NCBI GenBank assembly: GCA_033664045.1
Contig: GCA_033664045.1_3674.1
DNA length: 64,000 nt
Strand: one strand, 5' to 3'
DNA from: a phage
The stretch's first letter is position 1. Each line of letters begins with the position of its first letter. The notes beneath the pieces are model-generated. The model was not told the DNA's origin, did not search any database, and was given only the letters and a program-made list of their open reading frames with translations. Both the position numbers and the translations under genes were made by a program. Positions 8,854-45,159 of this stretch are shown here, in pieces.

Positions 8854-9615
8854 TTAAAGTTCCATAAAGTTTTCTACAGTTTCAATAAATGCTTTATCAG
8901 AGAAAGCGTCAACAGCACCGTTAAACCATACAGGGATCCCGCGATCCTCATATTGATAAAGGTCGCTACGTGAAATGCCACTTCCATCTGCACTCTGCGA
9001 ATCATACTTGTTTACAATCAGCAGTTTTGTGCCTTTACAAGTAGCAGGAAACAATTCCCAGTTAAAATTAATAACTGTGTTAGAACAACCTACCAGGATC
9101 ACCATATCATTGCTGGTAAGAGAAGTCAACAGGTCATACATGTCTGTATACTTAGGAGCAACCTCACCGAAGAACACCACATTGGGCTTAACCCAAGTAT
9201 ACTTGCCTGTATCTACCTCCGTGTATCCGATATTTTTAATTACATCATTACCTTCAGCATCTTCGTAGGTGATTTCAGGCAAATACCCGTGGACATGTAA
9301 AATATCTTCATGTTTTACACCAGCACGCTCCAGCAAATCATCTACATTGGTGGTAAGGTTGATCACACGACCAGACCAGCGGGAATACCACTCAGCGATC
9401 CGAAGATGTGCAATGTTAGGATCAACACTGCCCAGAGCTACACGACGTGCATTGTAAAAGTCATGCACCTTATAGTAGTTCTTGGCAAAGGTGTGGATGT
9501 TGCACACCTCATCGATGCTGAAATTCTCCCACATTGCAGTGCTACCAGATCGGAAAGTGGGAATACCAGATTCAGCGCTCAAACCAGCACCGGAGATAAT
9601 AATCAGTCGTCGCAT
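8854..9615 (-). CDS. sirtuin (Sir2)-like NAD-dependent deacylase/ADP-ribosyltransferase
   Basis: GAGLSAESGIPTFRS, LTTNVDDLLERAG, HVHG, VVFFGE; the usual CxxC Zn-ribbon cysteines appear absent. Confidence 0.75.
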   Translation of the reverse strand: MRRLIIISGAGLSAESGIPTFRSGSTAMWENFSIDEVCNIHTFAKNYYKVHDFYNARRVALGSVDPNIAHLRIAEWYSRWSGRVINLTTNVDDLLERAGVKHEDILHVHGYLPEITYEDAEGNDVIKNIGYTEVDTGKYTWVKPNVVFFGEVAPKYTDMYDLLTSLTSNDMVILVGCSNTVINFNWELFPATCKGTKLLIVNKYDSQSADGSGISRSDLYQYEDRGIPVWFNGAVDAFSDKAFIETVENFMEL

Positions 9616-9623
9616 AAGTGTCC

Positions 9624-9974
9624 TCAGTAGATGTTTTGTTTAATCTCTATTCCAAACTTTTTAAACGAGTCAGCTGCAAGCATGAATTTACGAGCCGCTG
9701 ATGGATTAGAAGTATGCACGAAAATCTTCACGTTGTCAACTACAGGAGGCTTACCAAATACAAATTTTTCCTCCAACATAGATAGGCAATCGTACCCTTC
9801 GAATACCTCTCCAAGGTCGTTGTCCATATGCCACTCAGAAACGCGTCTGTAGAGCTTTTTATTATCGTTAATAAAATCCATAAACTCGGAGGAATTCTTT
9901 AGCCAAATAGCGTCTTGGAGCCCATAATTTGACGGATCTCTCAAGTCATCAAGCCACACAATCAACTTCTTCAT
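9624..9974 (-). CDS. small receiver-like (Rossmannoid) domain protein, function unknown
   Basis: Conserved-position pattern LIVWLDDLRD ... HMDNDLGE ... IFVHTSNP ... K is reminiscent of a CheY-like fold. Confidence 0.3.
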   Translation of the reverse strand: MKKLIVWLDDLRDPSNYGLQDAIWLKNSSEFMDFINDNKKLYRRVSEWHMDNDLGEVFEGYDCLSMLEEKFVFGKPPVVDNVKIFVHTSNPSAARKFMLAADSFKKFGIEIKQNIY

Positions 9975-10906
9975 TGCATATAGTCCCAGTTGTGGAAATA
10001 GTAATCAAGTATCTCACGGCGTTCCTGCTCCAGGAGACAGTTCCACACGTCTTCTGTGTAATTGCTACGAATGAAGTTTACCATGCCGTAAAACTCTTCG
10101 TCAACACGTTTAAATATATCATCACCCCAAATCTTCCAAGCTTTACTCCTCATTACGGCCTTCCGTGCCAGATAGTATGGAGACTTGATCTTCAGCTGCA
10201 GATCATAAGGGTAGTAAGGCTTACGAATCATATACCCTTCACCTCTTGTTTCTGCAGCTAATTCTTTTGCATAGCTGAACGGAATTTCACGCACAGTGTG
10301 AGGACGTTTTGCACCAAGGTATTTGGCAATCCCATCTAAAGCTGCTTCTGGTAGCATTATTCCAGAATCATTATATCTGCAACCTATCAAATATGCTCCA
10401 TGATCTTCCTGAACAATATGCGGATCTGAAGGGTGACAAATTTCAAACATGAATGTCATGTTTTCATTGCCCATAACCTTCTTGATAAGATCTAAATTAC
10501 CACATTGCTCCCGGATGGTTTCCTTTGCAAGGTTACAATATGGAGAATCAAGAGATCCGGTTGTTGAGAACAATAGTTCCCCTTTATGAGATGATACCAC
10601 ACCGAGGAATCCGTTCTTTTTCTCTACCGCCGTCACAAGCTTATTGTCAGGCAGGTTGGTGGAATTTTCTCCCAAGTTAAACACTTTTGTGAAGGGCCAT
10701 GCCACAACATTTCCTTCATTACCGACAACAATGCCTCGGCACTCCAGCAAACGAGGGGACAAATGCCATAAATTGTTGTAAAATACTTTTCTGGCATATT
10801 TATAGATCTTTAACCCGAGATCTGGGTGATATCTGCTGGTTACAAGACCTTTGTCAACTAGGTCGTCTGCATTAAAATACTTCATCATACGTTCCTCATT
10901 TGTCAT
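9971..10906 (-). CDS. ATP-dependent RNA ligase-like nucleotidyltransferase (Rnl2-like)
   Basis: Motif I VEKKNGF (KxNG), motif IV EGYMIRKP (T4 Rnl2 EGYVLKP), motif V LQLKIKSP; a separate DNA ligase exists at 6216-7499. Confidence 0.6.
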   Translation of the reverse strand: MTNEERMMKYFNADDLVDKGLVTSRYHPDLGLKIYKYARKVFYNNLWHLSPRLLECRGIVVGNEGNVVAWPFTKVFNLGENSTNLPDNKLVTAVEKKNGFLGVVSSHKGELLFSTTGSLDSPYCNLAKETIREQCGNLDLIKKVMGNENMTFMFEICHPSDPHIVQEDHGAYLIGCRYNDSGIMLPEAALDGIAKYLGAKRPHTVREIPFSYAKELAAETRGEGYMIRKPYYPYDLQLKIKSPYYLARKAVMRSKAWKIWGDDIFKRVDEEFYGMVNFIRSNYTEDVWNCLLEQERREILDYYFHNWDYMQ

Positions 10907-10949
10907 TTTGTCAGCCTATCCTGCCACACAAATAACCTAGTGTCAACAC

Positions 10950-10978
10950 TTGAAATTAACAAAACAGTTAGGTATACT
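10950..10978 (+). promoter_or_regulatory. sigma70-like promoter for kinase/phosphoesterase operon
   Basis: TTGAAA-17 nt-TATACT, about 28 nt upstream of the GGAGG RBS and ATG at 11007. Confidence 0.5.
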
Positions 10979-11006
10979 ATCATTGAAATTAAAACGGAGG
11001 ATTGCT

Positions 11007-11414
11007 ATGTCTAAAATGCTATATATCGTGCGTGGTCTACCAGGGTCTGGCAAATCAACACTGGCAAATGCGCTATCTTTAGAAGGCCTGTATCCCCATT
11101 TTGAGAACGACATGTTCTGGTACGACGATGACGGCAATTACAACTGGGATGCAAGTAAAGTAACACTTGCAGCAAAATGGTGCAAAGATAACGTAGAAGA
11201 TATGATGCGTATGGGATACGACCGTATCGTGGTAAGTAATACGTTTACAAAAGAAAAATATGTGCAAGAATATATTGACATGGCAATCAGCTATGGGTAT
11301 AGTTATACCGTAATCGTGGTTGAAAACCGCCACGGTAATAAAAGCATTCATGCTTCAGACGAGGTTGTGGATCGTATGGAACGCCAACTTAAAAACTGCA
11401 TCAAACTTAAATGA
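11007..11414 (+). CDS. P-loop polynucleotide 5'-kinase-like protein
   Basis: Walker A LYIVRGLPGSGKST at N-terminus, like T4 Pnk kinase domain (GCPGSGKST); start set at ATG 11007 after GGAGG. Confidence 0.55.
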   Translation: MSKMLYIVRGLPGSGKSTLANALSLEGLYPHFENDMFWYDDDGNYNWDASKVTLAAKWCKDNVEDMMRMGYDRIVVSNTFTKEKYVQEYIDMAISYGYSYTVIVVENRHGNKSIHASDEVVDRMERQLKNCIKLK

Positions 11415-11421
11415 GGAATGT

Positions 11422-11976
11422 ATGAAATACTTTGTAACAAGCGACACACACTTTCTCCACCAGCGGGTCATGGAGTTTGAGTCATGTCAAAAACACAGAT
11501 CTCAGTATGATCACAATCTTGACAGTATGAATGCTGGAATCATCGCCGAGTGGAACTCTGTTGTGTCACCTGCAGACACTGTGTTCCACTTGGGAGATAT
11601 TGCATGCACTAATGATAAGAATATCAACAAATTGCTCCCAGATATTCTAAATATGTTGAACGGACATATTATTCTTGTTCGTGGCAACCATGACACAAGG
11701 ACGACTGTCAGAATTATGAAAGAGTTCTATCATGAGGTTGTAGATTATTACGAGCTTCGCCACAACAAGAATTTGATCTGTATGAGCCATTACCAGTTTG
11801 CAAAGTGGAACAGAAAGCCTCACGGATCAGTCCAACTGTTCGGTCATGCTCACGGAACCACACAACAGTTGTTTGGCAGGCAGTTTGATGTCGGTTGGGA
11901 TGTATGGGGGAGACTCTTACCATTAGAAGAGGCATACCGTATTGCAATGAGTTTTGATATTGACAGCAGGGAGTAA
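11422..11976 (+). CDS. calcineurin-like metallophosphoesterase (candidate end-healing phosphatase)
   Basis: Motifs SDTHF, HLGDIA, VRGNHD, FGHAHG; start set at ATG 11422 after GAGGAA. Confidence 0.6.
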   Translation: MKYFVTSDTHFLHQRVMEFESCQKHRSQYDHNLDSMNAGIIAEWNSVVSPADTVFHLGDIACTNDKNINKLLPDILNMLNGHIILVRGNHDTRTTVRIMKEFYHEVVDYYELRHNKNLICMSHYQFAKWNRKPHGSVQLFGHAHGTTQQLFGRQFDVGWDVWGRLLPLEEAYRIAMSFDIDSRE

Positions 11977-14478: not shown

Positions 14479-14817
14479 ATGGCGGATACAACTAAAAAGC
14501 GTCGCCGTAGAGGCAGACCTCTGAAAGAGGAGTCCAACGCCATTCAGCTAGAGAAGAACATCCTTGATATGAAGGAATCTTTTATAGCGATGGTTCCAGA
14601 AGCTCACAAAGTTTTAAGAGAGCTGATGTTGGACCCGAAAACCAAACAAAATATTCGTCAAAGCATTGCAGAGTATGTTCTTGATAAGGCAGACCGAATG
14701 CAGGAAGAATATGATGAGATGTTTGGTGAAGAGGAAGAGGTGGTAGTGGAAGAGGCTGAAAAACCAGCACCTTTTATGCCATTTACCACAGAAATACAGC
14801 CTGTTAGCAATAGTTAA
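14479..14817 (+). CDS. hypothetical basic/acidic protein with RGRP (AT-hook-like) motif
   Basis: Start at ATG 14479 after GGAGG; KKRRRRGRPLKEE near N-terminus, acidic C-terminal half. Confidence 0.5.
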   Translation: MADTTKKRRRRGRPLKEESNAIQLEKNILDMKESFIAMVPEAHKVLRELMLDPKTKQNIRQSIAEYVLDKADRMQEEYDEMFGEEEEVVVEEAEKPAPFMPFTTEIQPVSNS

Positions 14818-14826
14818 AATATTTTC

Positions 14827-14855
14827 TTGACAAACTTTGCTTAACAGTGTAATAT
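14827..14855 (+). promoter_or_regulatory. sigma70-like promoter preceding tRNA cluster
   Basis: TTGACA-17 nt-TAATAT about 60 nt upstream of the first tRNA. Confidence 0.55.
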
Positions 14856-14913
14856 TGTAAACATGGTCTCCCACCTTTTCTGGCGGCTAAGGTGTAAAAG
14901 AAAGCCACCCAGT

Positions 14914-14988
14914 GCCCTGTTAGCTTAGTGGATAAAGCAGCGGCCTTCTAAGCCGTTGACACTGGTTCGAGTCCAGTACGGGGTGCCA
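14914..14988 (+). tRNA. tRNA-Arg (anticodon TCT)
   Basis: Hand-folded cloverleaf: acceptor GCCCTGT/ACGGGGT with G-U pairs, anticodon loop CTTCTAA, T-loop TTCGAGT, encoded CCA. Ends approximate. Confidence 0.75.
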
Positions 14989-14992
14989 AATT

Positions 14993-15079
14993 GGGGAGTT
15001 ATCCCGTAGAGGTAGCGGTGTAGACTGTAAATCTATTGTCATTGCGACTCGGGTGGTTCGACTCCACCACTCCCCACCA
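14993..15079 (+). tRNA. tRNA-Tyr (anticodon GTA), class II with long variable arm
   Basis: Acceptor GGGGAGT/ACTCCCC, anticodon loop CTGTAAA, T-arm GGTTCGACTCC, encoded CCA; architecture parallels E. coli tRNA-Tyr. Confidence 0.8.
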
Positions 15080-15193
15080 AATTTATATTTTTAAATGTAT
15101 AAATCATACAGATAATGGCATTGATATTTATCGTCGTTTATACTAGTCACTAACTGCTCGAAAATCAGTGTCATTATCAGTATTGTTTATAAA

Positions 15194-15284
15194 AGAGGGT
15201 AGGGAGCAATGGTGCTCAAGCGGTCTTGAAAACCGTCCCGTTGAGGATGACTCGATGATGGTTCGATTCCATTACCCTCTGCCA
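15194..15284 (+). tRNA. tRNA-Ser (anticodon TGA), class II
   Basis: Acceptor AGAGGGT/ACCCTCT, anticodon stem-loop CGGTCTTGAAAACCG, long extra arm, T-arm GGTTCGATTCC, CCA. Confidence 0.75.
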
Positions 15285-15372
15285 TATTGTTGACCTTGTA
15301 ATTAAGCGAAAGCCGGAAGCAGAACCGGATTATCAAATGTTACAGTCGTCATCGCCGACTAGCAACATGGTC

Positions 15373-15481
15373 AACATACTGAGCTAGGTAAGCCCTTTGG
15401 CAAGGGCGAGGATTTTTAATCCTGAAAATAGACGAGGTAGTCGTTGAATACATAGGTGGTTCGATTCCACCGCCTAGCACC
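15373..15481 (+). tRNA. aberrant tRNA-like gene (about 107 nt), possible pseudo-tRNA
   Basis: Perfect acceptor GCTAGGT/GCCTAGC and T-arm GGTGGTTCGATTCCACC, but anticodon region AGGAT-TTTTA-ATCCT and a roughly 30-nt extra arm; CC but no encoded CCA. Confidence 0.35.
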
Positions 15482-15486
15482 TTTTT

Positions 15487-15562
15487 GCTGATGTAGCACA
15501 ATTGGTAATGCAATTGATTTGTAATCAATAGGTTGCAGGTTCAAGTCCTGCCATCAGCACCA
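15487..15562 (+). tRNA. tRNA-Thr (anticodon TGT)
   Basis: Acceptor GCTGATG/CATCAGC, anticodon stem-loop ATTGA-TTTGTAA-TCAAT, T-arm GCAGGTTCAAGTCCTGC, CCA. Confidence 0.8.
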
Positions 15563-15563
15563 A

Positions 15564-15638
15564 GGCCCTGTAGCTGGAAGGTTCAAGCAAGCGACTCATA
15601 ATCGCCAGACGGTGGTTCAATTCCACCCAGGGCCACCA
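15564..15638 (+). tRNA. tRNA-Met-type (anticodon CAT; elongator Met or Ile2 not resolved)
   Basis: Acceptor GGCCCTG/CAGGGCC fully paired, anticodon loop CTCATAA, T-arm GGTGGTTCAATTCCACC, CCA. Confidence 0.7.
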
Positions 15639-15649
15639 AATAATAAATA

Positions 15650-15726
15650 CTCCGCGTAGCTCAGCTTGGTAGAGCGCCTGATTTGGGATCAGGAGGTCGA
15701 GTGTTCGAATCACTCCGTGGAGACCA
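15650..15726 (+). tRNA. tRNA-Pro (anticodon TGG)
   Basis: Acceptor CTCCGCG/CGTGGAG, canonical D-arm GCTCAGCTTGGTAGAGC, anticodon stem-loop CCTGA-TTTGGGA-TCAGG, T-loop TTCGAAT, CCA. Confidence 0.85.
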
Positions 15727-15772
15727 CTTTCAGTTATACTTTAAACATATACAAACAAAAGGAACCTTTAAA

Positions 15773-16042
15773 ATGTATACACTTAAAATTGTAGAGCGTG
15801 TAAATCCAACCCATACCGTAGATTTTCGTGACGATTTCAATCCTCTGGCTGTAAATCTTCGAGAGTCATATCATGAACTCAGCTGCGATGCAGTGGTGGT
15901 CTTTTTTGAAGACAACTCTGAAGGGGCAGTAGCTTGTGTTGTTGATAGTGAGCAGAAGTTTTATATTTACAGAGATGTAGATGCATACTTGATGAATGAA
16001 AATGCAGTTACTGTTAGAATCATCCACCGAGTGCCTCGATAA
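15773..16042 (+). CDS. hypothetical protein (89 aa)
   Basis: Start moved to ATG 15773 because the listed ORF 15683 overlaps tRNA-Pro. Confidence 0.4.
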   Translation: MYTLKIVERVNPTHTVDFRDDFNPLAVNLRESYHELSCDAVVVFFEDNSEGAVACVVDSEQKFYIYRDVDAYLMNENAVTVRIIHRVPR

Positions 16043-16098: not shown

Positions 16099-16129
16099 CC
16101 CCGTTAGCTACATAGCTGCGGGGTTTTTT
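16099..16129 (+). terminator. rho-independent terminator
   Basis: CCCCG-TT-AGCTA...TAGCT-G-CGGGG hairpin followed by TTTTTT. Confidence 0.7.
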
Positions 16130-16546: not shown

Positions 16547-16830
16547 GAGTTGCTGCACTGTTTATTGTGTGCTTGTTATTGTGTGGGTGTGCAACCAGCG
16601 TTGAGAGAGAATACAAGATTGACCCTCCAGATGTAGGAAGGTTGATTGTTAAACCCCCGGAAGGTGCCATGAAACCACCTGCTAAAGCTATGCCTTTGAA
16701 GAAAGGTGCGCCAGATGCAGTGAATTCTGGCATTATGAGGGATAATAATCTGTCTTGTAGCAATGATAGAGCTAAATTGATCATTTTGCAAGACTACATT
16801 AGAACACTGTTTCCAAAGGAGAGAGGTTAA
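16543..16830 (+). CDS. o-spanin (Rz1-like lipoprotein), putative
   Basis: Signal peptide with Cys-containing lipobox-like LLLCGCATS, proline-rich mature part (KPPEGAMKPPAKAMP); 4-bp overlap with i-spanin. Confidence 0.55.
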   Translation: MRVAALFIVCLLLCGCATSVEREYKIDPPDVGRLIVKPPEGAMKPPAKAMPLKKGAPDAVNSGIMRDNNLSCSNDRAKLIILQDYIRTLFPKERG

Positions 16831-17255
16831 TGTCTAAGATTTACGGACCGTGTTCTGAAAAGCAGAAGATGATCCTAGAAAACGATGCAGATATTTTGGT
16901 AATCGGCGGTGCCGCAGGGTCTGGCAAGTCGTTCCTCTTGCAGTTGATGCCACTTAAAATTATTGATGACCCCCACAGCTCTGTGGTTATGTTCCGAAGA
17001 ACAACCCCGCAGTTGGAAGGTGAGGGTGGACTATGGCCTAAAGCAGTAGCTATTTATAGTGATCTGCCTGAAAACATTAAGCCAAAGTTCAGAGAGAAGG
17101 ATCATAAGTTCATTTTTCCACGGTTTGATCCGAACACTGGTAAGTGGGATAGAAGCAAAAAGGGAGCTGTTGTAAAATACTGCCACATGGAGTATGTACA
17201 AGATAAGCTTAACCATCAGGGGCTTGAGTACACCATGGTTTGCTTCGATGAGGGT
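16830..17255 (+). CDS. terminase large subunit, exon 1 (ATPase N-terminus)
   Basis: Walker A LVIGGAAGSGKSF and Walker B MVCFDEG; frame stops at TAA 17256-17258, exactly where the intron begins. Confidence 0.8.
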
Positions 17256-17574
17256 TAATTTGTAGCTCTCGTAAAACCTCCCTAATTGCGGGGAAATCTT
17301 TATTATTGACACCACCAACCTGTTATGGTAACATAATAGAGGCTTCGAAGAGAGATCGAAGGTATGGTAACAGTGTGTTAATTTAGATAATCCGCAGCGA
17401 AGCATCCGATAGGATGAACGTTCAACGACTAGTCGAGAGACGTAGAATCAAGCGATTCGAAACGGGAGGGTAAGCGGTTGTTGTCGCTTATAAGATATAG
17501 TCTGGTCTGCATGGAGACATGCAGCTGCCTGAAAATGGCGGGGCAAGACTAGCGACCTTGCCTGAACATAAACG
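17256..17574 (+). mobile_element. group I self-splicing intron (no ORF)
   Basis: Core elements P AATTGCGGGGAAA (17284-17296), Q AATCCGCAGC (17389-17398), R GTTCAACGACTAGTC (17420-17434), S AAGATATAGTCT (17492-17503); P1 exon GAGGGU (17250-17255) pairs with GCUCUC (17265-17270) including U.G at splice site; ends with G17574. Confidence 0.75.
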
Positions 17575-17891: not shown

Positions 17892-18888
17892 TAAATAATA
17901 GTGGCTTCGTGCAGAAATGCACGTCGAATAACTTCGTTAATTGCTGGAAAATCCGATTGCTAAACGGACAATCAGCAGCTATAATTACCCTTCCGAACCT
18001 GTAGTAGGGAGATGTTTGAAATGAAAAATTTAGGCTTTTTAGGCTACAATCATTATTGTGCTACATACGATGGCAGAATTTACAGTCTGTATTCTAATAA
18101 ATTCCTCCATCCTAATGTGCAGAAAAAGACTGGCTATGCTATGGTAACTTTGTGCGAGGACGGTAAAAAGTTCCAAGTGCTCGTTCACAGAGTGATTGCT
18201 ATGACTTTTGTTGATAATGATAATCCCAGCGTGAAAACTCAAGTAAATCACCTTGATGGCAATAAGTTGAATAACGCCGCATGGAACCTTGAGTGGACAA
18301 CACCTGAGGAAAACACACATCATGCTCATGAAATGGGACTTAAAAAGGACTATGTCAATAAATACAGGTCCCTAGATGATGCCACTGCTCTTGAAATATG
18401 TAGACTGTTAGAGCAAGGTGCAAGGGTAAAAGACATTTGTGAAATGTTTGGTGTCAATCAACCACTTGTAAGTGGTATAAAGAATGGCTCAGTATACCCA
18501 GATATTTCTAAAGAGTTTAACTTTAGAAAAGTGCCAACCTCTAATAGGATAAGTGAGCACAAGATAATAGGTATCTGCGAGGATCTTAGTGATAGGGTTT
18601 TGTGTGTAAATAAAATAGCTAAGAAGTGGGGCGTAAGTTTTAGTGTTGTTAAAGGAATAAAAGACCGTAAGACTTACACCTATATTTCAAACAATTACGA
18701 TTGGTAATGTAGTTCAACGACTATCCCGAGAGGGAGTAGGGCGCAAGCTTATGGCGCTCGAAAAGCGAAGCACCCTGAGATGGGTGGTGATATAGTCTAC
18801 TCTGCATGGTAACATGCAGCGGCACGTAATGGTGCGGAGGGTGGTGTTGCGACCACCTTTGAATATAAGGATTCGATAATCCTGTCTG
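17892..18888 (+). mobile_element. group I intron carrying an HNH homing endonuclease gene
   Basis: P-like AATTGCTGGAAAA (17939-17951), R GTTCAACGACTATCC (18712-18726), S GATATAGTCT (18789-18798); 3' region near-identical to intron 1 (ATATAGTCT..TCTGCATGG..ACATGCAGC); P1 CCAUU/AGUGG with U.G. Confidence 0.7.
18012..18707 (+). CDS. HNH homing endonuclease (intron-encoded)
   Basis: HNH core QVLVHRVIAMTF...VNHLDGNKLNNAAWNLEWTTPEENTHHA with C-terminal HTH-like repeats; sits between the intron Q and R elements. Confidence 0.8.
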   Translation: MFEMKNLGFLGYNHYCATYDGRIYSLYSNKFLHPNVQKKTGYAMVTLCEDGKKFQVLVHRVIAMTFVDNDNPSVKTQVNHLDGNKLNNAAWNLEWTTPEENTHHAHEMGLKKDYVNKYRSLDDATALEICRLLEQGARVKDICEMFGVNQPLVSGIKNGSVYPDISKEFNFRKVPTSNRISEHKIIGICEDLSDRVLCVNKIAKKWGVSFSVVKGIKDRKTYTYISNNYDW

Positions 18889-19675
18889 TTTGAGAGACAA
18901 CCCAGAATACCTTGCTTTCCTCGAAGGTCTACCAGAGCTGGAAAAAGCTCAGCTTCTCCATGGTAACTGGTTTGCAAAGCCTGAGGGTGCAAACTATTTT
19001 CAAAGATCTTTCCTTCGTGATGCCGATAGAGTACCCCTTGGATCAGTATCTTGCAGGGCATGGGATAAGGCAGGAACCGAGAGAACTTCCGGTAATAAAT
19101 TTCCTGACTTTACCGCCAGTGTTAAGGTAAGTAAAGATAGCGACGGATTTTATTACCTGTCAGGAGATTATTGTCCTGAAAACGTAGATGACGGGAGGTA
19201 TTCCACAGGTCTGGAAGGCAAGTTCTGTAAAAAGGCTGGTGAACGAGATGTGATCATCAGGAAACAGGCGCAGTTTGATGGTGATGATTGTATAATCGTA
19301 TTCTCTGTGGACCCCGGTCAGGCAGGTAAGAGTGAGTTCTTAACCTCATCCAGATCCTTGCTCGCAGAAGGGTTCAGGGTTGAAGAAGACCCAATGCCTT
19401 CCAACAAGTCTAAACTGACAAGGTTCTCACCTTTTGCCAATCTTGCCCAACAAGGGATGGTGAGGATTGTAAAATCCAGTTTCCATCCTGATACTCTGGA
19501 AGCATTTCTGACCGAACTTGAAAAATTCAACGGGGAAAGATCAACATTTAACAGAAAAGACGACTGGGCTGACTGTGTAGCTTCTGCAATTAATTTCCTG
19601 GAGAAAGAGGAGGTAGCACTTCCTTGTGTGATTCCATCAATCTCATCACCTTCTATGTTCAAGCGTTTTATCTAA
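18889..19675 (+). CDS. terminase large subunit, exon 3 (nuclease domain)
   Basis: (L)RDNPEYLAFLEGLPELEKAQLLHGNW then acidic nuclease motifs RAWDKAG, VDPGQAGKSEF, DDWADC; frame open only from 18869. Confidence 0.75.
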
Positions 19676-44734: not shown

Positions 44735-45159
44735 TGAGCACACACCCTCGTTTAGTGGATTGGCAAGAAAGATTGTGGAAAGTATTTGACGAAGAGGCCA
44801 CCATACCTTTTGAATGGGGATTCCACGATTGTTGCACCTTTGCAGCTAAGTGTGTTGATGCCCAATACGGAACAGATTTTCTTTCTAACTTCGAAGGAAC
44901 GTATAAAACAGAGTTGGAAAGCAAAAGATGGTGCATGCTTCGTTTCAAAACTACACACCTGCCTACTATTTTTGATCTCTTTTTGACTCGACTGGATACT
45001 CCTAAACAGGTTCAGCGTGGCGATATTGTTATTTTCGAAGGTCTGAACGGCCTCACCGCTGGTGTGTTCTGGAACAACCAGATTTGGGCGAAAGGTAATA
45101 AAGGGATCTTTACGTTCGATATGAAAGATTCTATCGTTGTTGATGTCTGGAGGTATTAA
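44734..45159 (+). CDS. NlpC/P60-like (tail assembly K-like) protein, putative
   Basis: FEWGFHDCCTFAAKCVD cysteine motif; start at ATG 44734 after GGAGG. Confidence 0.35.
   Translation: MSTHPRLVDWQERLWKVFDEEATIPFEWGFHDCCTFAAKCVDAQYGTDFLSNFEGTYKTELESKRWCMLRFKTTHLPTIFDLFLTRLDTPKQVQRGDIVIFEGLNGLTAGVFWNNQIWAKGNKGIFTFDMKDSIVVDVWRY

Follow-up and report, generated by a model that had tools for sequence, protein, structure and literature searches.

Inside the tRNA cluster of an rV5-like coliphage lies an irregular tRNA-like gene which belongs to a family of tRNA-shaped RNAs, conserved in structure and not described before, that occurs in the tRNA clusters of several groups of enterobacterial phages. 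In the window, i.e., the whole stretch of 64,000 nucleotides analysed here, the element lies on the + strand and measures 97 nt to the discriminator A15479, or 99 nt with the encoded CC. Its presence is beyond chance expectation: ARAGORN reports 15383-15481 as “tRNA-???” and gives it an anticodon of four bases, MFE folding yields a cloverleaf of –37 kcal/mol (z = –3.8 vs. shuffles), and the family covariance model built in this work (R1) finds the element as sole copy in the window with 100.4 bits. With 31.0 bits vs. a gathering score of 29 (E = 3e-4), the match of the Rfam tRNA model RF00005 to 15383-15479 is a marginal pass, in which the alignment has to insert 26 nt into the variable region and to open a gap at the top of the anticodon stem. 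A preliminary description had recognised a tRNA-like gene in the cluster, as is borne out here; the span it gave, 15373-15481 and 107 nt, is corrected to a 5′ end at 15383 and a length of 97 nt.

Annotations of this RNA differ from one source to another. The identical 97 nt are labelled tRNA-Lys(AAA), with the same boundaries, in the BASEL records (tRNAscan-SE-based), ARAGORN-based database records of copies read tRNA-???, tRNA-OTHER or tRNA-TERM, with a single record as tRNA-Pseudo, the rV5 genome paper leaves the element out of its annotation, and ARAGORN overlooks most family copies. The labels of the standard tools disagree, and none of them folds the element canonically. No family corresponding to the element is found in Rfam, and the full-text literature searched yielded neither a description of this RNA nor a transcriptome or RNA-seq study of the carrier phages.

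Architecture of the element and of its operon

The features on which the analysis is based are the following (coordinates are those of the window):

9624..11976, mixed strands: RNA-repair module, 3.4-5.8 kb (about 4 kb) upstream of the element
9624-9974, – strand: cREC domain protein of the module
9971-10906, – strand: T4 Rnl1-family RNA ligase of the module
10950-11414, + strand: Pnk-like kinase of the module
11320-11976, + strand: metallophosphoesterase of the module
14827..14855, + strand: predicted sigma-70-type promoter, TTGACA-17-TAATAT (consensus scan, 10/12 positions)
14914..15726, + strand: tRNA operon, in the order Arg(UCU), Tyr, Ser(UGA), the element, Thr(UGU), Met/Ile(CAU), Pro(UGG)
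15383..15479, + strand: irregular tRNA-like RNA, 97 nt, from G1 to the discriminator A73
15383..15389, + strand: acceptor stem, 5′ strand GCUAGGU, pairing with 15472-15478
15390..15391, + strand: linker AA, in which A8 replaces the canonical U8
15392..15407, + strand: D arm, 6-bp stem GCCCUU/AAGGGC with the 4-nt loop UGGC
15409..15423, + strand: anticodon-like arm AGGAUUUUUAAUCCU, between G15408 and G15424 (G.G)
15424..15454, + strand: enlarged extra region, 31 nt, with single-stranded flanks GAAAAUA(G) and (U)GAAUACAUA
15455..15471, + strand: canonical T arm, GGUGG-UUCGAUU-CCACC, 100% of base-pair cells paired
15472..15478, + strand: acceptor stem, 3′ strand GCCUAGC; over the 35 distinct sequences, 100% of the acceptor cells are paired
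15480..15486, + strand: 3′ trailer CC-UUUUU, a partial CCA followed by a U run (sequence reading)
16099..16129, + strand: hairpin plus T6, likely intrinsic terminator (read off the sequence; absent from the list of the automatic scan)

Most of the structural observations made at the outset hold for the window copy. The acceptor stem, which had been called perfect, is not strictly so, as six of its seven pairs are Watson-Crick and one is U7.G66; the T arm is canonical, as had been stated. The anticodon-like arm admits both of the foldings originally proposed, a 4-bp stem AGGA/UCCU with the 7-nt loop UUUUUAA (UUU, U33, A37) and a 5-bp stem AGGAU/AUCCU with the 5-nt loop UUUUA; the MFE fold favours 6 bp and a 3-nt loop, and a canonical-style 7-nt loop with U33 requires the 4-bp stem plus the G.G. 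The extra arm, estimated at roughly 30 nt, measures 31 nt and includes a hairpin of 4-5 bp (15431-15445), which is the variable part between conserved flanks; by eye, no pairing was found between the two flanks, or between the flanks and the loops. The element has no position-26 hinge, its A8 is invariant across the family alignment, and the geometry of its D arm, a 6-bp stem with a 4-nt loop, is tRNA-Sec-like in every member. At the 3′ end, the sequence A-CC-UUUUU confirms that the full CCA is not encoded, while CCA is encoded in all six neighbouring tRNAs. These neighbours are canonical, as first described, either scoring 60-75 bits on RF00005 or being ordinary class II tRNAs.

The tRNA-Thr gene starts at 15487, directly 3′ of the trailer of the element; on the 5′ side, the element is preceded by a spacer of 98 nt. 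Outside the rV5 lineage, the element usually begins 2-4 nt past the CCA of the preceding tRNA, and the tRNA cluster is the constant location of the family members. The putative terminator ends the operon after a small ORF (15773-16042). ARAGORN finds no other tRNA-Lys in the window.

The genes of the RNA-repair module were assigned by Pfam (PF20274, PF09511, PF13671, PF00149) and PHROG (562/505/547), and the BASEL annotation has “RNA ligase”, “polynucleotide kinase” and “phosphoresterase” here. A functional tie of the module to the element is putative and a matter of context. The Rnl1 ligase is found in the myovirus carriers, yet it is also widespread among phages without the RNA, so that a specific link between element and ligase was rejected; in the N4-like carrier, no Rnl1 ligase was found among the matches listed.

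Distribution of the family and selection on its fold

Copies of the RNA are carried by five genera of Vequintavirinae, by phi92-like Stephanstirmvirinae (Justusliebigvirus) and by one N4-like phage (Ithacavirus), and further copies occur in IMG/VR and metagenome contigs. Members score 79-114 bits with R1, which detects one copy per phage, vs. at most 29 bits for ordinary tRNAs; in the window, tRNA-Ser and tRNA-Tyr reach 24 and 20 bits, respectively, vs. 100 for the element. The phi92-type copies go undetected by RF00005 at E ≤ 1. A host or prophage origin was considered and rejected, since blastn of 5,426 complete E. coli genomes gave zero matches to the element and no convincing bacterial locus was present among the matches listed: a scan of 185,579 species genomes with a degenerate D-arm pattern returned at least 120 loci, and among those listed none exceeds 26 bits by R1 and none is called a tRNA by ARAGORN.

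The element is almost certainly a selected structured RNA. In an alignment of 35 distinct copies, 98.6% of the base-pair cells are paired and 14 of the 23 pairs change on both sides; in an alignment of 23 distinct copies, the corresponding values are 98% and 12 of 24 pairs, while slid controls of this alignment are just 30-47% paired. Changes on both sides affect five of the seven acceptor pairs (35 distinct sequences), three of the six pairs of the D stem and three of the five of the T stem. The elbow pair 19:56 between D loop and T loop is G:C in 16 and U:A in 7 of the 23 distinct copies, with zero mismatches; this covariation links alignment column 18 (D loop, G18) with column 91 (T loop), and the switch involves the loops as units, UGGC occurring with UUCGAUU and UGUC with UUAGAUU. 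As the acceptor, D, anticodon-like and T helices and the elbow pair are all kept by compensatory substitutions, the selection acts on an L-shaped fold. The acceptor/T branch is 7/5 throughout the family, the bases flanking the stem being unable to pair. The extra region ranges in the family from 31 to 40 nt, with 31 nt in the window and 39-40 nt elsewhere; its flanks are near-invariant between genera, whereas the hairpin between them is replaced or lengthened with compensatory changes. Besides the T arm, the most invariant stretches are these unpaired flanks and the D arm.

A comparison of the window with phage Av-05 is particularly informative, as homology is restricted to the element, which is 92% identical, and the flanking sequence has diverged beyond alignment. 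The eight differences include two compensatory pairs, one change from G-C to G.U, two loop changes and the discriminator, and none of the eight breaks a pair. A single recent horizontal transfer as the source of the alignment is disfavoured by the divergence of backbones and hosts.

These data bear directly on the idea, raised in the preliminary description, that the aberrant shape reflects a decayed tRNA or a tRNA with an insertion. A decaying pseudogene, or a tRNA interrupted not long ago by inserted sequence, would agree with the annotators who write “tRNA-Pseudo” or leave the element out, with the lack of a complete CCA in this lineage and with the bare pass of the Rfam tRNA threshold. Against it, 98-99% of the pair cells are kept in 35 copies from at least three phage taxa, compensation is abundant and occurs in every helix and in the tertiary pair, the flanks of the supposed insertion are invariant, and the Av-05 element persists almost unchanged amid diverged surroundings. 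Decay is refuted by the covariation, and the pseudogene reading as a whole is extremely improbable. Of the insertion proposal the shape was right; the inserted part is ancient and conserved, and not a recent disruption.

Identity marks, candidate role and rival explanations

The anticodon-like loop varies in length, from 5 to 8 nt (6 or 8 nt throughout whole genera), and in sequence. Outside the rV5 and Av-05 lineages, U33 is almost never present, and most other genera have A33 or C33. In the Seuna and Mydo copies the loop fixes C35, C36 and A37, with U or G at position 34, which switches between the two even in close relatives; other lineages have the loop N-A-U-C-A-A-R, and all rV5-lineage copies combine the loop UUUUUAA with A73. 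In the loop-proximal part, the rV5-lineage stem-loop reads GA-UUUUUAA-UC vs. GA-CUUUUAA-UC in the host tRNA-Lys. C2-G71 and G10-C25 are invariant, and G1-C72 is present in 32 of the 35 distinct sequences. U73-CCA is encoded in most genera, and three lineages are without a full encoded CCA: in rV5-like copies CC(U) follows A73, or CA in L006 and L198, the sequence is U-ACA in Av-05, and in phi92-like copies it is U-CCC, U-UUC or U-UCA.

In E. coli, the glycine identity set comprises U73, G1-C72, C2-G71, C35 and C36, and the lysine set UUU and A73 (PMC9976931). All five glycine marks are carried by the Seuna- and Mydo-type copies; the UCA lineages have A in place of C36, and further exceptions are A1-U72 in L196, G1.U72 in L186 and L187, and the loop GUGAUA in L186. 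Of the glycine marks, the window copy keeps G1-C72 and C2-G71, with A73 and UUU in place of the others, and the lysine marks U34, U35, U36 and A73 are present, as sequence marks alone, in all rV5-lineage copies. Av-05, with UAU and U73, fits no identity set. For E. coli SerRS, C2-G71 has been published as an anti-determinant, and its invariance disfavours serine identity, which the long arm would suggest.

Canonical tRNA-Gly(UCC) and/or tRNA-Lys(UUU) co-occur with the element in relatives. Lysine accounts for 5.9% of the codons of this phage, with AAA making up 56% of the lysine codons, i.e., no excess; AAA is a codon well served in the host, and a codon-supply rationale was rejected, there being no special demand for Lys or AAA. 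Seven of the 40 long ORFs of the window end in TGA, and nothing that needs readthrough was seen within the window.

The reading that we tentatively prefer, at somewhat less than an even chance, is that of a functional, non-canonical tRNA-like RNA acting as a surrogate or decoy in a tRNA-targeting defence conflict. It comes close to the third proposal of the preliminary description, a tRNA-like decoy for host nucleases or modification enzymes, which is plausible. The RNA would be co-transcribed from the operon promoter and matured in tRNA style, with RNase P cutting the 5′ end, trimming of the 3′ end and, in the rV5 lineage, the terminal A supplied by the host CCA enzyme; maturation like that of a tRNA is probable. 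Aminoacylation, which would be glycine-type in most genera and lysine-type in the rV5 lineage, is suggested by U73-CCA together with G1-C72/C2-G71 and C35 (C36), or by A73 together with the UUU loop, and we regard it as an evenly balanced matter. Routine decoding is unlikely because of the non-standard core and loop, and this, together with the canonical tRNA-Gly and/or tRNA-Lys of the carriers, favours the role of surrogate or decoy. The candidate target enzymes would be toxSAS and GNAT acetyltransferases, as readers of the acceptor end, or PrrC and PARIS, as readers of the anticodon stem-loop of tRNA-Lys, and the Rnl1/Pnk/phosphoesterase module of the same phage may repair cleaved tRNAs.

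The scenario has precedents among known systems. PARIS, with a nuclease that recognises the anticodon stem-loop, is neutralised by the tRNA-Lys of T5, the tRNA-Tyr of T5 counters Retron-Eco7, and phage tRNAs mutated in the anticodon loop also neutralise tRNA-targeting defences. FaRel2 picks tRNAs by G1-C72, C2-G71, G4-C69 and Pu5-Py68, and TacT by U73 and G71; coliphages encoding tRNA-Lys(UUU) also encode RNA ligases vs. PrrC. The defence-related part of the scenario is itself no firmer than tentative: the argument from identity marks is post hoc and has exceptions (L186, L187, L196, Av-05), the rV5 lineage lacks the full encoded CCA that its six neighbours have, a decoy for a catalytic toxin would have to be abundant or tight-binding, and the strong conservation of the unpaired flanks in the extra region has no explanation within the scenario.

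These flanks are the starting point of a somewhat less likely explanation, in which a tRNA-shaped RNA works independently of charging and loop, via its elbow and the flanks (GAAAAUA..., ...AAUACAUA), for example as a sponge for, or cofactor of, a protein of host or phage, as a scaffold for processing the polycistronic tRNA precursor or as a small RNA with a base-pairing seed. The invariance of flanks and D arm, second only to that of the T arm, would then be expected, as would a loop free to vary in length and sequence and the unencoded CCA of three lineages, and T4 rnaC/rnaD provide a precedent in a tRNA cluster. The retention of U73-CCA in most genera, of invariant C2-G71 and near-invariant G1-C72, and of C35/A37 across deep lineages would be hard to explain if the 3′ end and the loop were not read. 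The opposite view, that the element is an unusual but genuine decoding tRNA, for Lys(UUU) here and for Gly(NCC), or a glycine-inserting opal (UCA) suppressor, in relatives, appears distinctly unlikely. It accords with the tRNAscan-SE-based annotation as tRNA-Lys(AAA), with the full lysine set offered by the 4-bp reading (7-nt loop, U33, UUU, A37, A73), with the window having no other tRNA-Lys and with the single substitution that separates UCA from UCC. In tRNA-Sec a 6-bp D stem replaces missing core layers, and the 6-bp D stem of the element might likewise stand in for those it lacks. However, A8, the missing position-26 hinge, the 4-bp stem closed by G.G and the 31-nt extra region all speak against decoding, as do the canonical tRNA-Gly(UCC) and tRNA-Lys(UUU) of relatives and the absence of AAA over-use; moreover, since loop length, position 33 (A or C) and position 34 (U or G) vary in other lineages, the conserved role of the scaffold is not standard decoding.

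By analogy, a dedicated glycyl or lysyl donor for non-ribosomal transfer by a phage enzyme can also be envisaged, and is very improbable. Mom of phage Mu is a phage enzyme using Gly-tRNA-Gly, in DNA hypermodification, and a staphylococcal non-proteinogenic tRNA-Gly serves the cell wall; a donor would be expected to combine a glycine-type acceptor with an unconstrained wobble position and a loop that does not decode. Nevertheless, the curated annotation of a near-identical genome includes no Fem-like or GNAT transferase, and the lysine-type switch of the rV5 lineage would demand a matching change of enzyme. A tblastn search with Mu Mom found no homologue in the rV5-, Seuna-, Mydo- and phi92-type phages of ~135-150 kb among the matches listed, in which the eight Escherichia records were taken together rather than one by one, so that the specific case of a glycyl donor for a Mom-like DNA-modifying enzyme was rejected.

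A broader version of the surrogate or decoy reading, which is rather unlikely as a whole, would see the family as a mobile class of aminoacylatable, non-decoding mimics, serving as decoys or nuclease-proof surrogates of whichever host tRNA is under attack by local antiphage effectors and switching identity as defences change, with the flanks trapping or blocking an effector. These mimics, shared by large virulent enterobacterial phages, would combine the Sec-like D arm, the enlarged extra region and the canonical acceptor/T minihelix, and the identity switch would lie between the glycine-type marks of most genera and the lysine-type marks of rV5-like phages.

Phage tRNAs, once considered codon-supply accessories, are now seen as counter-defence weapons (tRNA-Lys vs. 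PARIS; tRNA-Tyr vs. Retron-Eco7 and Septu). The RNA described here is a well-delimited, strongly conserved family of model and therapeutic phages (rV5/BASEL Vequintavirus, PVP-SE1-like, phi92-like), which gene finders annotate inconsistently or miss and which departs from tRNA architecture in several respects yet retains what tRNA-handling enzymes read. If charged yet non-decoding, it would represent a new type of viral tRNA mimic, with natural identity switching on a non-standard scaffold; if decoding, it would widen the range of tRNA bodies tolerated by the bacterial ribosome. With the covariance model and the alignment, the family is now searchable.

Comparison with known RNAs

With class II tRNAs (Ser, Leu, Tyr; RF00005) the element shares the 7-bp acceptor stem, the 5-bp T stem, the T loop UUCGAUU, which fits the canonical UUCRANY, G19:C56, a hairpin inserted between anticodon arm and T arm, and the location in a tRNA operon. 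Unlike them, it has A8 in place of U8, a D stem of 6 bp with a 4-nt loop (3-4 bp and 7-11 nt in class II tRNAs), a hairpin that sits between conserved single strands of 7-10 nt, and an anticodon-like stem of 4-5 bp with a loop of 5-8 nt. The element has neither the canonical tRNA core (U8; D stem of 3-4 bp; A14, R15, A21) nor a canonical variable region (4-5 nt, or a hairpin arm of 10-24 nt).

The 6-bp D stem with a tetraloop and the long extra arm recall tRNA-Sec (selC; RF01852), which is the best Rfam model for diverged copies. The tRNA-Sec loop of E. coli is CUUCAAA (UCA triplet), and the CAUCAAA loop of several lineages is one base off it. By contrast, the acceptor/T branch is 8/5 (13 bp) in tRNA-Sec and 7/5 in the element, tRNA-Sec has G73 and U33, whereas the family has U73 or A73, and A33 in the UCA lineages, and the window copy has UUU, not UCA. 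The RF01852 scores of 24-39 bits fall short of the gathering score (47) and do not surpass those of an ordinary tRNA-Ser, and membership of tRNA-Sec was rejected on branch, discriminator and sub-threshold score. Allo-tRNAs and SelC* tRNAs have been proposed as suppressors and/or regulatory RNAs (Mukai et al., 2017; PMC5389517); an acceptor/T branch of 8/4 or 9/3 is the defining feature of allo-tRNAs, and serine is the amino acid they presumably accept. They too are irregular and Sec-like: the D stem is long and capped by a tetraloop, the V arm is long, the anticodons are diverse and U73 is common, and phage tRNA clusters contain some of them; their anticodon stems are long, short in the element, and C2-G71, a SerRS anti-determinant, conflicts with the presumed acceptance of serine. 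Membership was rejected, the family being strictly 7/5.

Among phage RNAs, T4 rnaC (species 1) and rnaD (species 2), stable tRNA-like molecules whose function is unknown, are encoded, as the element is, beside a canonical tRNA in the tRNA cluster of a coliphage. They differ from it in size and architecture, and homology was rejected: with filters off, R1 reaches 8.4 bits (E about 0.9) in a part of rnaC and finds no match in rnaD. Anti-defence tRNAs of the type of T5 tRNA-Lys against PARIS are likewise phage-encoded and located in clusters, and the rV5-lineage copy has lysine-type marks, with a stem-loop that resembles, without equalling, that of the host tRNA-Lys hit by PrrC and PARIS; they are canonical decoders with few substitutions, whereas core and extra region of the element are rebuilt.

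The RNA mascRNA, viral tRNA-like structures and bacterial YrlA are non-decoding tRNA mimics. They are unrelated to the element in sequence and context, and none of them is encoded, complete with CCA, in a tRNA operon of a phage; YrlA differs in the way its tRNA-like module is closed, and its Rfam model gave no match to the element. What the element would have in common with these mimics is an elbow and an acceptor recognised by tRNA-handling enzymes, put to a use other than normal decoding.

Location and fold of the element

A BLAST search with 14800-15800 places the window in an rV5-like coliphage (Vequintavirus), with 99% identity over this region to E. coli O157 typing phage 14, MaxTheCat, slur16 and about 110 other genomes. 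Among GenBank records, some 19 of the MG0656xx series carry the label "Campylobacter phage", with C. jejuni as host; over this region they share 98-99% identity with these coliphages, and they are probably mislabelled or contaminant assemblies. ARAGORN finds seven genes within 14914-15726, and calls all six neighbours of the element as the canonical tRNAs that the preliminary description took them to be. The cluster comprises:

14827-14855, before the first tRNA: strong sigma-70-type promoter match, TTGACA-17-TAATAT (consensus scan)
14914-15726, plus strand: six ordinary tRNAs, Arg-UCU, Tyr-GUA, Ser-UGA, Thr-UGU, Met-CAU and Pro-UGG (ARAGORN)
15383-15481, plus strand: seventh gene, "tRNA-???" with a 4-base anticodon (ARAGORN)
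15773-16042, after the last tRNA: small ORF
about 16099-16129, after the last tRNA: hairpin followed by T6 (read from the sequence)

With the promoter match before it and the small ORF and hairpin-T6 after it, the element appears embedded in a predicted tRNA operon. The CAU tRNA (15564-15638) is tRNA-Met by ARAGORN and Rfam and tRNA-Ile (ATA) in the records of the BASEL phage collection, a call which implies a lysidine-modified tRNA-Ile2; ATA accounts for 22% of the Ile codons in the window. An AT-rich 114-nt spacer (15080-15193), between tRNA-Tyr and tRNA-Ser, holds a weak promoter-like site (15115-15144, 9 of 12 positions) and gave no match in Rfam.

Read directly (plus strand, 15383-15479), the element is:

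5' half: GCUAGGU / AA / GCCCUU-UGGC-AAGGGC / G / AGGA(U)-UUUUU(A)A-(A)UCCU
3' half: G-AAAAUAG-ACGA-GGUAG-UCGU-UGAAUACAUA / GGUGG-UUCGAUU-CCACC / GCCUAGC / A

CC and UUUUU come next, before tRNA-Thr starts at 15487. The preliminary description was thus essentially right, except that the 5' end lies at 15383, giving 97 nt instead of 107, and that the 7-bp acceptor stem, present but called "perfect", contains one G.U pair. On folding, this strand alone gives a cloverleaf (–37 kcal/mol, z = –3.8). Standard tools disagree on whether it is a canonical tRNA: beside the ARAGORN call, the tRNAscan-SE-based BASEL records give exactly the same 97 nt as a tRNA-Lys reading AAA, and the Rfam tRNA model scores 15383-15479 at 31.0 bits (threshold 29), a match that requires a 26-nt variable-region insertion and deletion of the first anticodon-stem position. 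In GenBank records of near-identical phages the same stretch is tRNA-???(atcc), tRNA-OTHER, tRNA-Pseudo, tRNA-TERM, tRNA-Lys or unannotated, and the published description of the rV5 genome has six tRNAs and leaves the element out. No description of it was found in the full-text literature searched, within which the family described below is previously undescribed.

A selected, L-shaped, tRNA-like RNA family

BLAST searches, first with the element as query and next with its diverged copies, found orthologues in Avunavirus (Av-05), Seunavirus (phages of Salmonella and Cronobacter, including GAP31), Mydovirus (phages of Klebsiella, Proteus and Raoultella), Henunavirus (Erwinia), the phi92-like Justusliebigvirus, which belongs to another subfamily (Stephanstirmvirinae), and a single N4-like member of the Schitoviridae, Ithacavirus UTK0002. 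Further copies, from IMG/VR and metagenome contigs, came from pattern scans. Every copy lies in a tRNA cluster and, outside the rV5 lineage, the CCA of the preceding tRNA usually ends 2-4 nt before the element starts. A search of 5,426 complete E. coli genomes yielded no relative, and none of the bacterial loci from a D-arm pattern scan (at least 120) exceeded 26 bits among the matches listed, so that the family is, as far as sampled, confined to phage tRNA clusters.

In a MAFFT alignment of 23 distinct copies, with the cloverleaf as read from the sequences, pairing is kept in 98.0% of cells, against 30-47% with slid partners, and 12 of 24 pairs have changed on both sides. The tertiary pair between D-loop and T-loop covaries perfectly, UGGC occurring with UUCGAUU and UGUC with UUAGAUU (G19:C56 in 16 copies, U19:A56 in 7), which is direct evidence for a kept tRNA elbow and hence an L shape. 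On a covariance model derived from this alignment, members reach 79-114 bits and no ordinary tRNA exceeds 29 bits; the long-arm tRNA-Ser and tRNA-Tyr of the window obtain 24 and 20 bits, respectively. The model finds a single copy in each phage. When 35 distinct copies are aligned to the model, 98.6% of cells are paired, rising to 100% in the acceptor and T stems, and changes on both sides are seen in 14 of 23 pairs; the 23-copy result is the cleaner test because the larger alignment was fitted to the model. Between rV5-like phages and Av-05, where BLAST homology is limited to the element (query positions 99-194), the eight differences include two pairs with full compensation, beside one change from G-C to G.U, two in loops and one at the discriminator, and no pair is broken. 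The family is therefore a selected, L-shaped, tRNA-like RNA with a non-canonical core. The earlier suggestion of a decayed tRNA is contradicted by these compensatory changes and unbroken pairs, which exclude a decaying pseudogene and leave that explanation with next to no probability.

The family departs from canonical tRNAs in several features that are invariant or nearly so. Among them are an A in place of U at position 8 and a D arm in which a 6-bp stem carries a tetraloop. Between the D arm and the anticodon-like stem lies one G only; that stem has 4-5 bp and, as its outer closure, a G.G juxtaposition. The T stem follows 31 nt later in the window and 39-40 nt later elsewhere. In this extra region, two conserved single strands, G(U)AAAA... 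and ...AAUACAUA, flank a variable hairpin that is swapped and lengthened from genus to genus, with compensatory changes. The anticodon-like loop varies in length and sequence among lineages.

Anticodon-like loops of the family
rV5-like phages: UUUUUAA
Av-05: UUUAUAA
Henunavirus, Ithacavirus, Justusliebigvirus and several metagenomic lineages: N-A-U-C-A-A-R (7 nt, "UCA" triplet but A33)
Seuna- and Mydo-type copies: C-C-N-N-C-C-A-G (8 nt; 6 nt with the ends paired)
One contig (L186): GUGAUA

In the other genera ARAGORN does not call the element, and Rfam returns only tRNA-Sec matches of 24-39 bits (threshold 47), no better than ordinary tRNA-Ser on the same model; the phi92-type copies are undetected by Rfam. 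The tRNA clusters of relatives hold further irregular tRNA-like pieces, which ARAGORN misses or calls "tRNA-???" with 2- or 4-base anticodons:

Av-05 (L001), about 1613-1780 and 1798-1880
Retrieved relatives: L002, about 2620-2790; L013, 731-805; L025, 5994-6079; L026, 192-261

One Av-05 piece has a normal T arm and CCA with an aberrant body (29.6 bits on the Rfam tRNA-Sec model). Irregular tRNA-like genes may thus be a wider feature of these phages.

Identity marks and putative function

The 3' end of the element probably matters. Copies of the Seuna, Mydo, Henuna and Ithaca types, and those of several metagenomic lineages, encode U73-CCA; the rV5 lineage has A73 then CC(U), Av-05 U-ACA, and phi92-type copies U-CCC/UUC/UCA. 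The 3' ends of T4 tRNAs are completed by the host CCA-adding enzyme, which could likewise complete these ends. C2-G71 and G10-C25 are invariant, and G1-C72 is present in 32 of 35 copies. Glycine identity in E. coli resides in U73, G1-C72, C2-G71, C35 and C36; U73 with G71 is exclusive to tRNA-Gly and is read by the TacT toxin, C2-G71 is an anti-determinant for SerRS, and the lysine set is UUU with A73 (PMC9976931). Seuna- and Mydo-type loops keep C35, C36 and A37, with U or G at position 34 and A, C or U at position 33, as expected if recognition by GlyRS were selected and the reading of a particular codon were not; the UCA lineages are one substitution away. In the rV5 lineage every copy seen combines discriminator A with UUUUUAA, the complete E. 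coli lysine set; with both closing pairs included, this loop (GA-UUUUUAA-UC) and that of host tRNA-Lys (GA-CUUUUAA-UC) differ at 1 of 11 positions. These readings are post hoc and suggestive only, with exceptions in A1-U72 (contig L196), G1.U72 (contigs L186 and L187), the GUGAUA loop of L186, and UAU with U73 in Av-05.

The lysine set would suit a plain decoding tRNA-Lys; relatives with the element also encode canonical tRNA-Gly(UCC) and/or tRNA-Lys(UUU), and in the window Lys makes up 5.9% of codons, of which AAA is only 56%, so that ordinary codon supply looks unlikely and this reading improbable. Less likely still is a non-ribosomal aminoacyl donor, for which a search for a Mom-like partner was negative among the matches listed. 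We tentatively prefer a surrogate or decoy for host tRNAs under attack by antiphage effectors. The element would undergo tRNA-like maturation and probably charging, of glycine type in most genera and of lysine type in rV5-like phages. AriB of PARIS recognises tRNA-Lys by its anticodon stem-loop, and a variant tRNA-Lys of T5 neutralises it; the toxSAS FaRel2 picks tRNA-Gly and tRNA-Thr via G1-C72, C2-G71, G4-C69 and Pu5-Py68, pairs present in most family members; and GNAT toxins acetylate Gly-tRNA-Gly (PMC9976931). Such conflicts are thus fought via both ends of tRNAs. The main rival, a charging-independent role in which the conserved elbow and the single-stranded flanks would do the work, we consider somewhat less likely than a surrogate or decoy. 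Although its functional readings are putative, the element offers a clean lead, well suited to experiment, in model phages.

Genomic setting and known systems

Domain matches (Pfam/PHROG-type) and curated names in a near-identical genome reveal a cluster of RNA-repair-type genes, of which those other than Sir2 form an RNA-repair module 3.4-5.8 kb upstream of the element:

8854-9615, minus strand: Sir2
9624-9974, minus strand: cyclic-phosphate-processing cREC domain protein
9971-10906, minus strand: T4 Rnl1-family RNA ligase
10950-11414, plus strand: Pnk-like P-loop kinase
11320-11976, plus strand: metallophosphoesterase

In T4, tRNA-Lys cut by the PrrC anticodon nuclease is repaired by Pnkp and Rnl1, and coliphages with tRNA-Lys(UUU) have been noted to encode such ligases; kinase and phosphatase are fused in T4 Pnkp, whereas here they appear split over two genes. 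The ligase and adjoining phosphoesterase occur also in Mydo-, Seuna-, Henuna- and phi92-type carriers, but the ligase is common in phages without the element as well, and thus marks the part of these phages, though not necessarily of the element, in a tRNA-damage arms race.

At 15480-15486 rV5-like phages have CC-UUUUU, against CCA-AA... in other genera; with the T arm/acceptor hairpin, this U run is terminator-like in a consensus scan, and could serve attenuation into tRNA-Thr or as an Hfq or RNase E site. The spacer directly 5' of the element (15300-15384) shares 83-88% identity with two stretches of other phages: lambda 44866-44952, which lies between orf-64 and S, and P7 72367-72432, some 560 nt downstream of the tRNA-Asn and tRNA-Thr of P7. 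This homology ends at the 5' end of the element, which suggests that unrelated coliphages have exchanged tRNA-cluster leaders and that, in the rV5 lineage, the element was moved by a rearrangement. Elsewhere in the window, the terminase large subunit is split (N-terminal part 16830-17258, C-terminal part 18890-19675) around an HNH + HTH endonuclease ORF (18012-18707), and is uninterrupted (515 aa) in the near-identical AlexBoehm; the arrangement resembles a mobile insertion of intron or intein type with a homing endonuclease.

Among known RNAs, the 6-bp D stem with tetraloop is the geometry of tRNA-Sec and allo-tRNAs too (PMC5389517). Membership in either class fails on the acceptor/T branch, 7/5 here against 8/5 in tRNA-Sec and 8/4 or 9/3 in allo-tRNAs (PMC5389517). 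T4 rnaC and rnaD, for which homology was rejected (8.4 bits and no match, respectively), are like the element in their location, within the T4 tRNA cluster.
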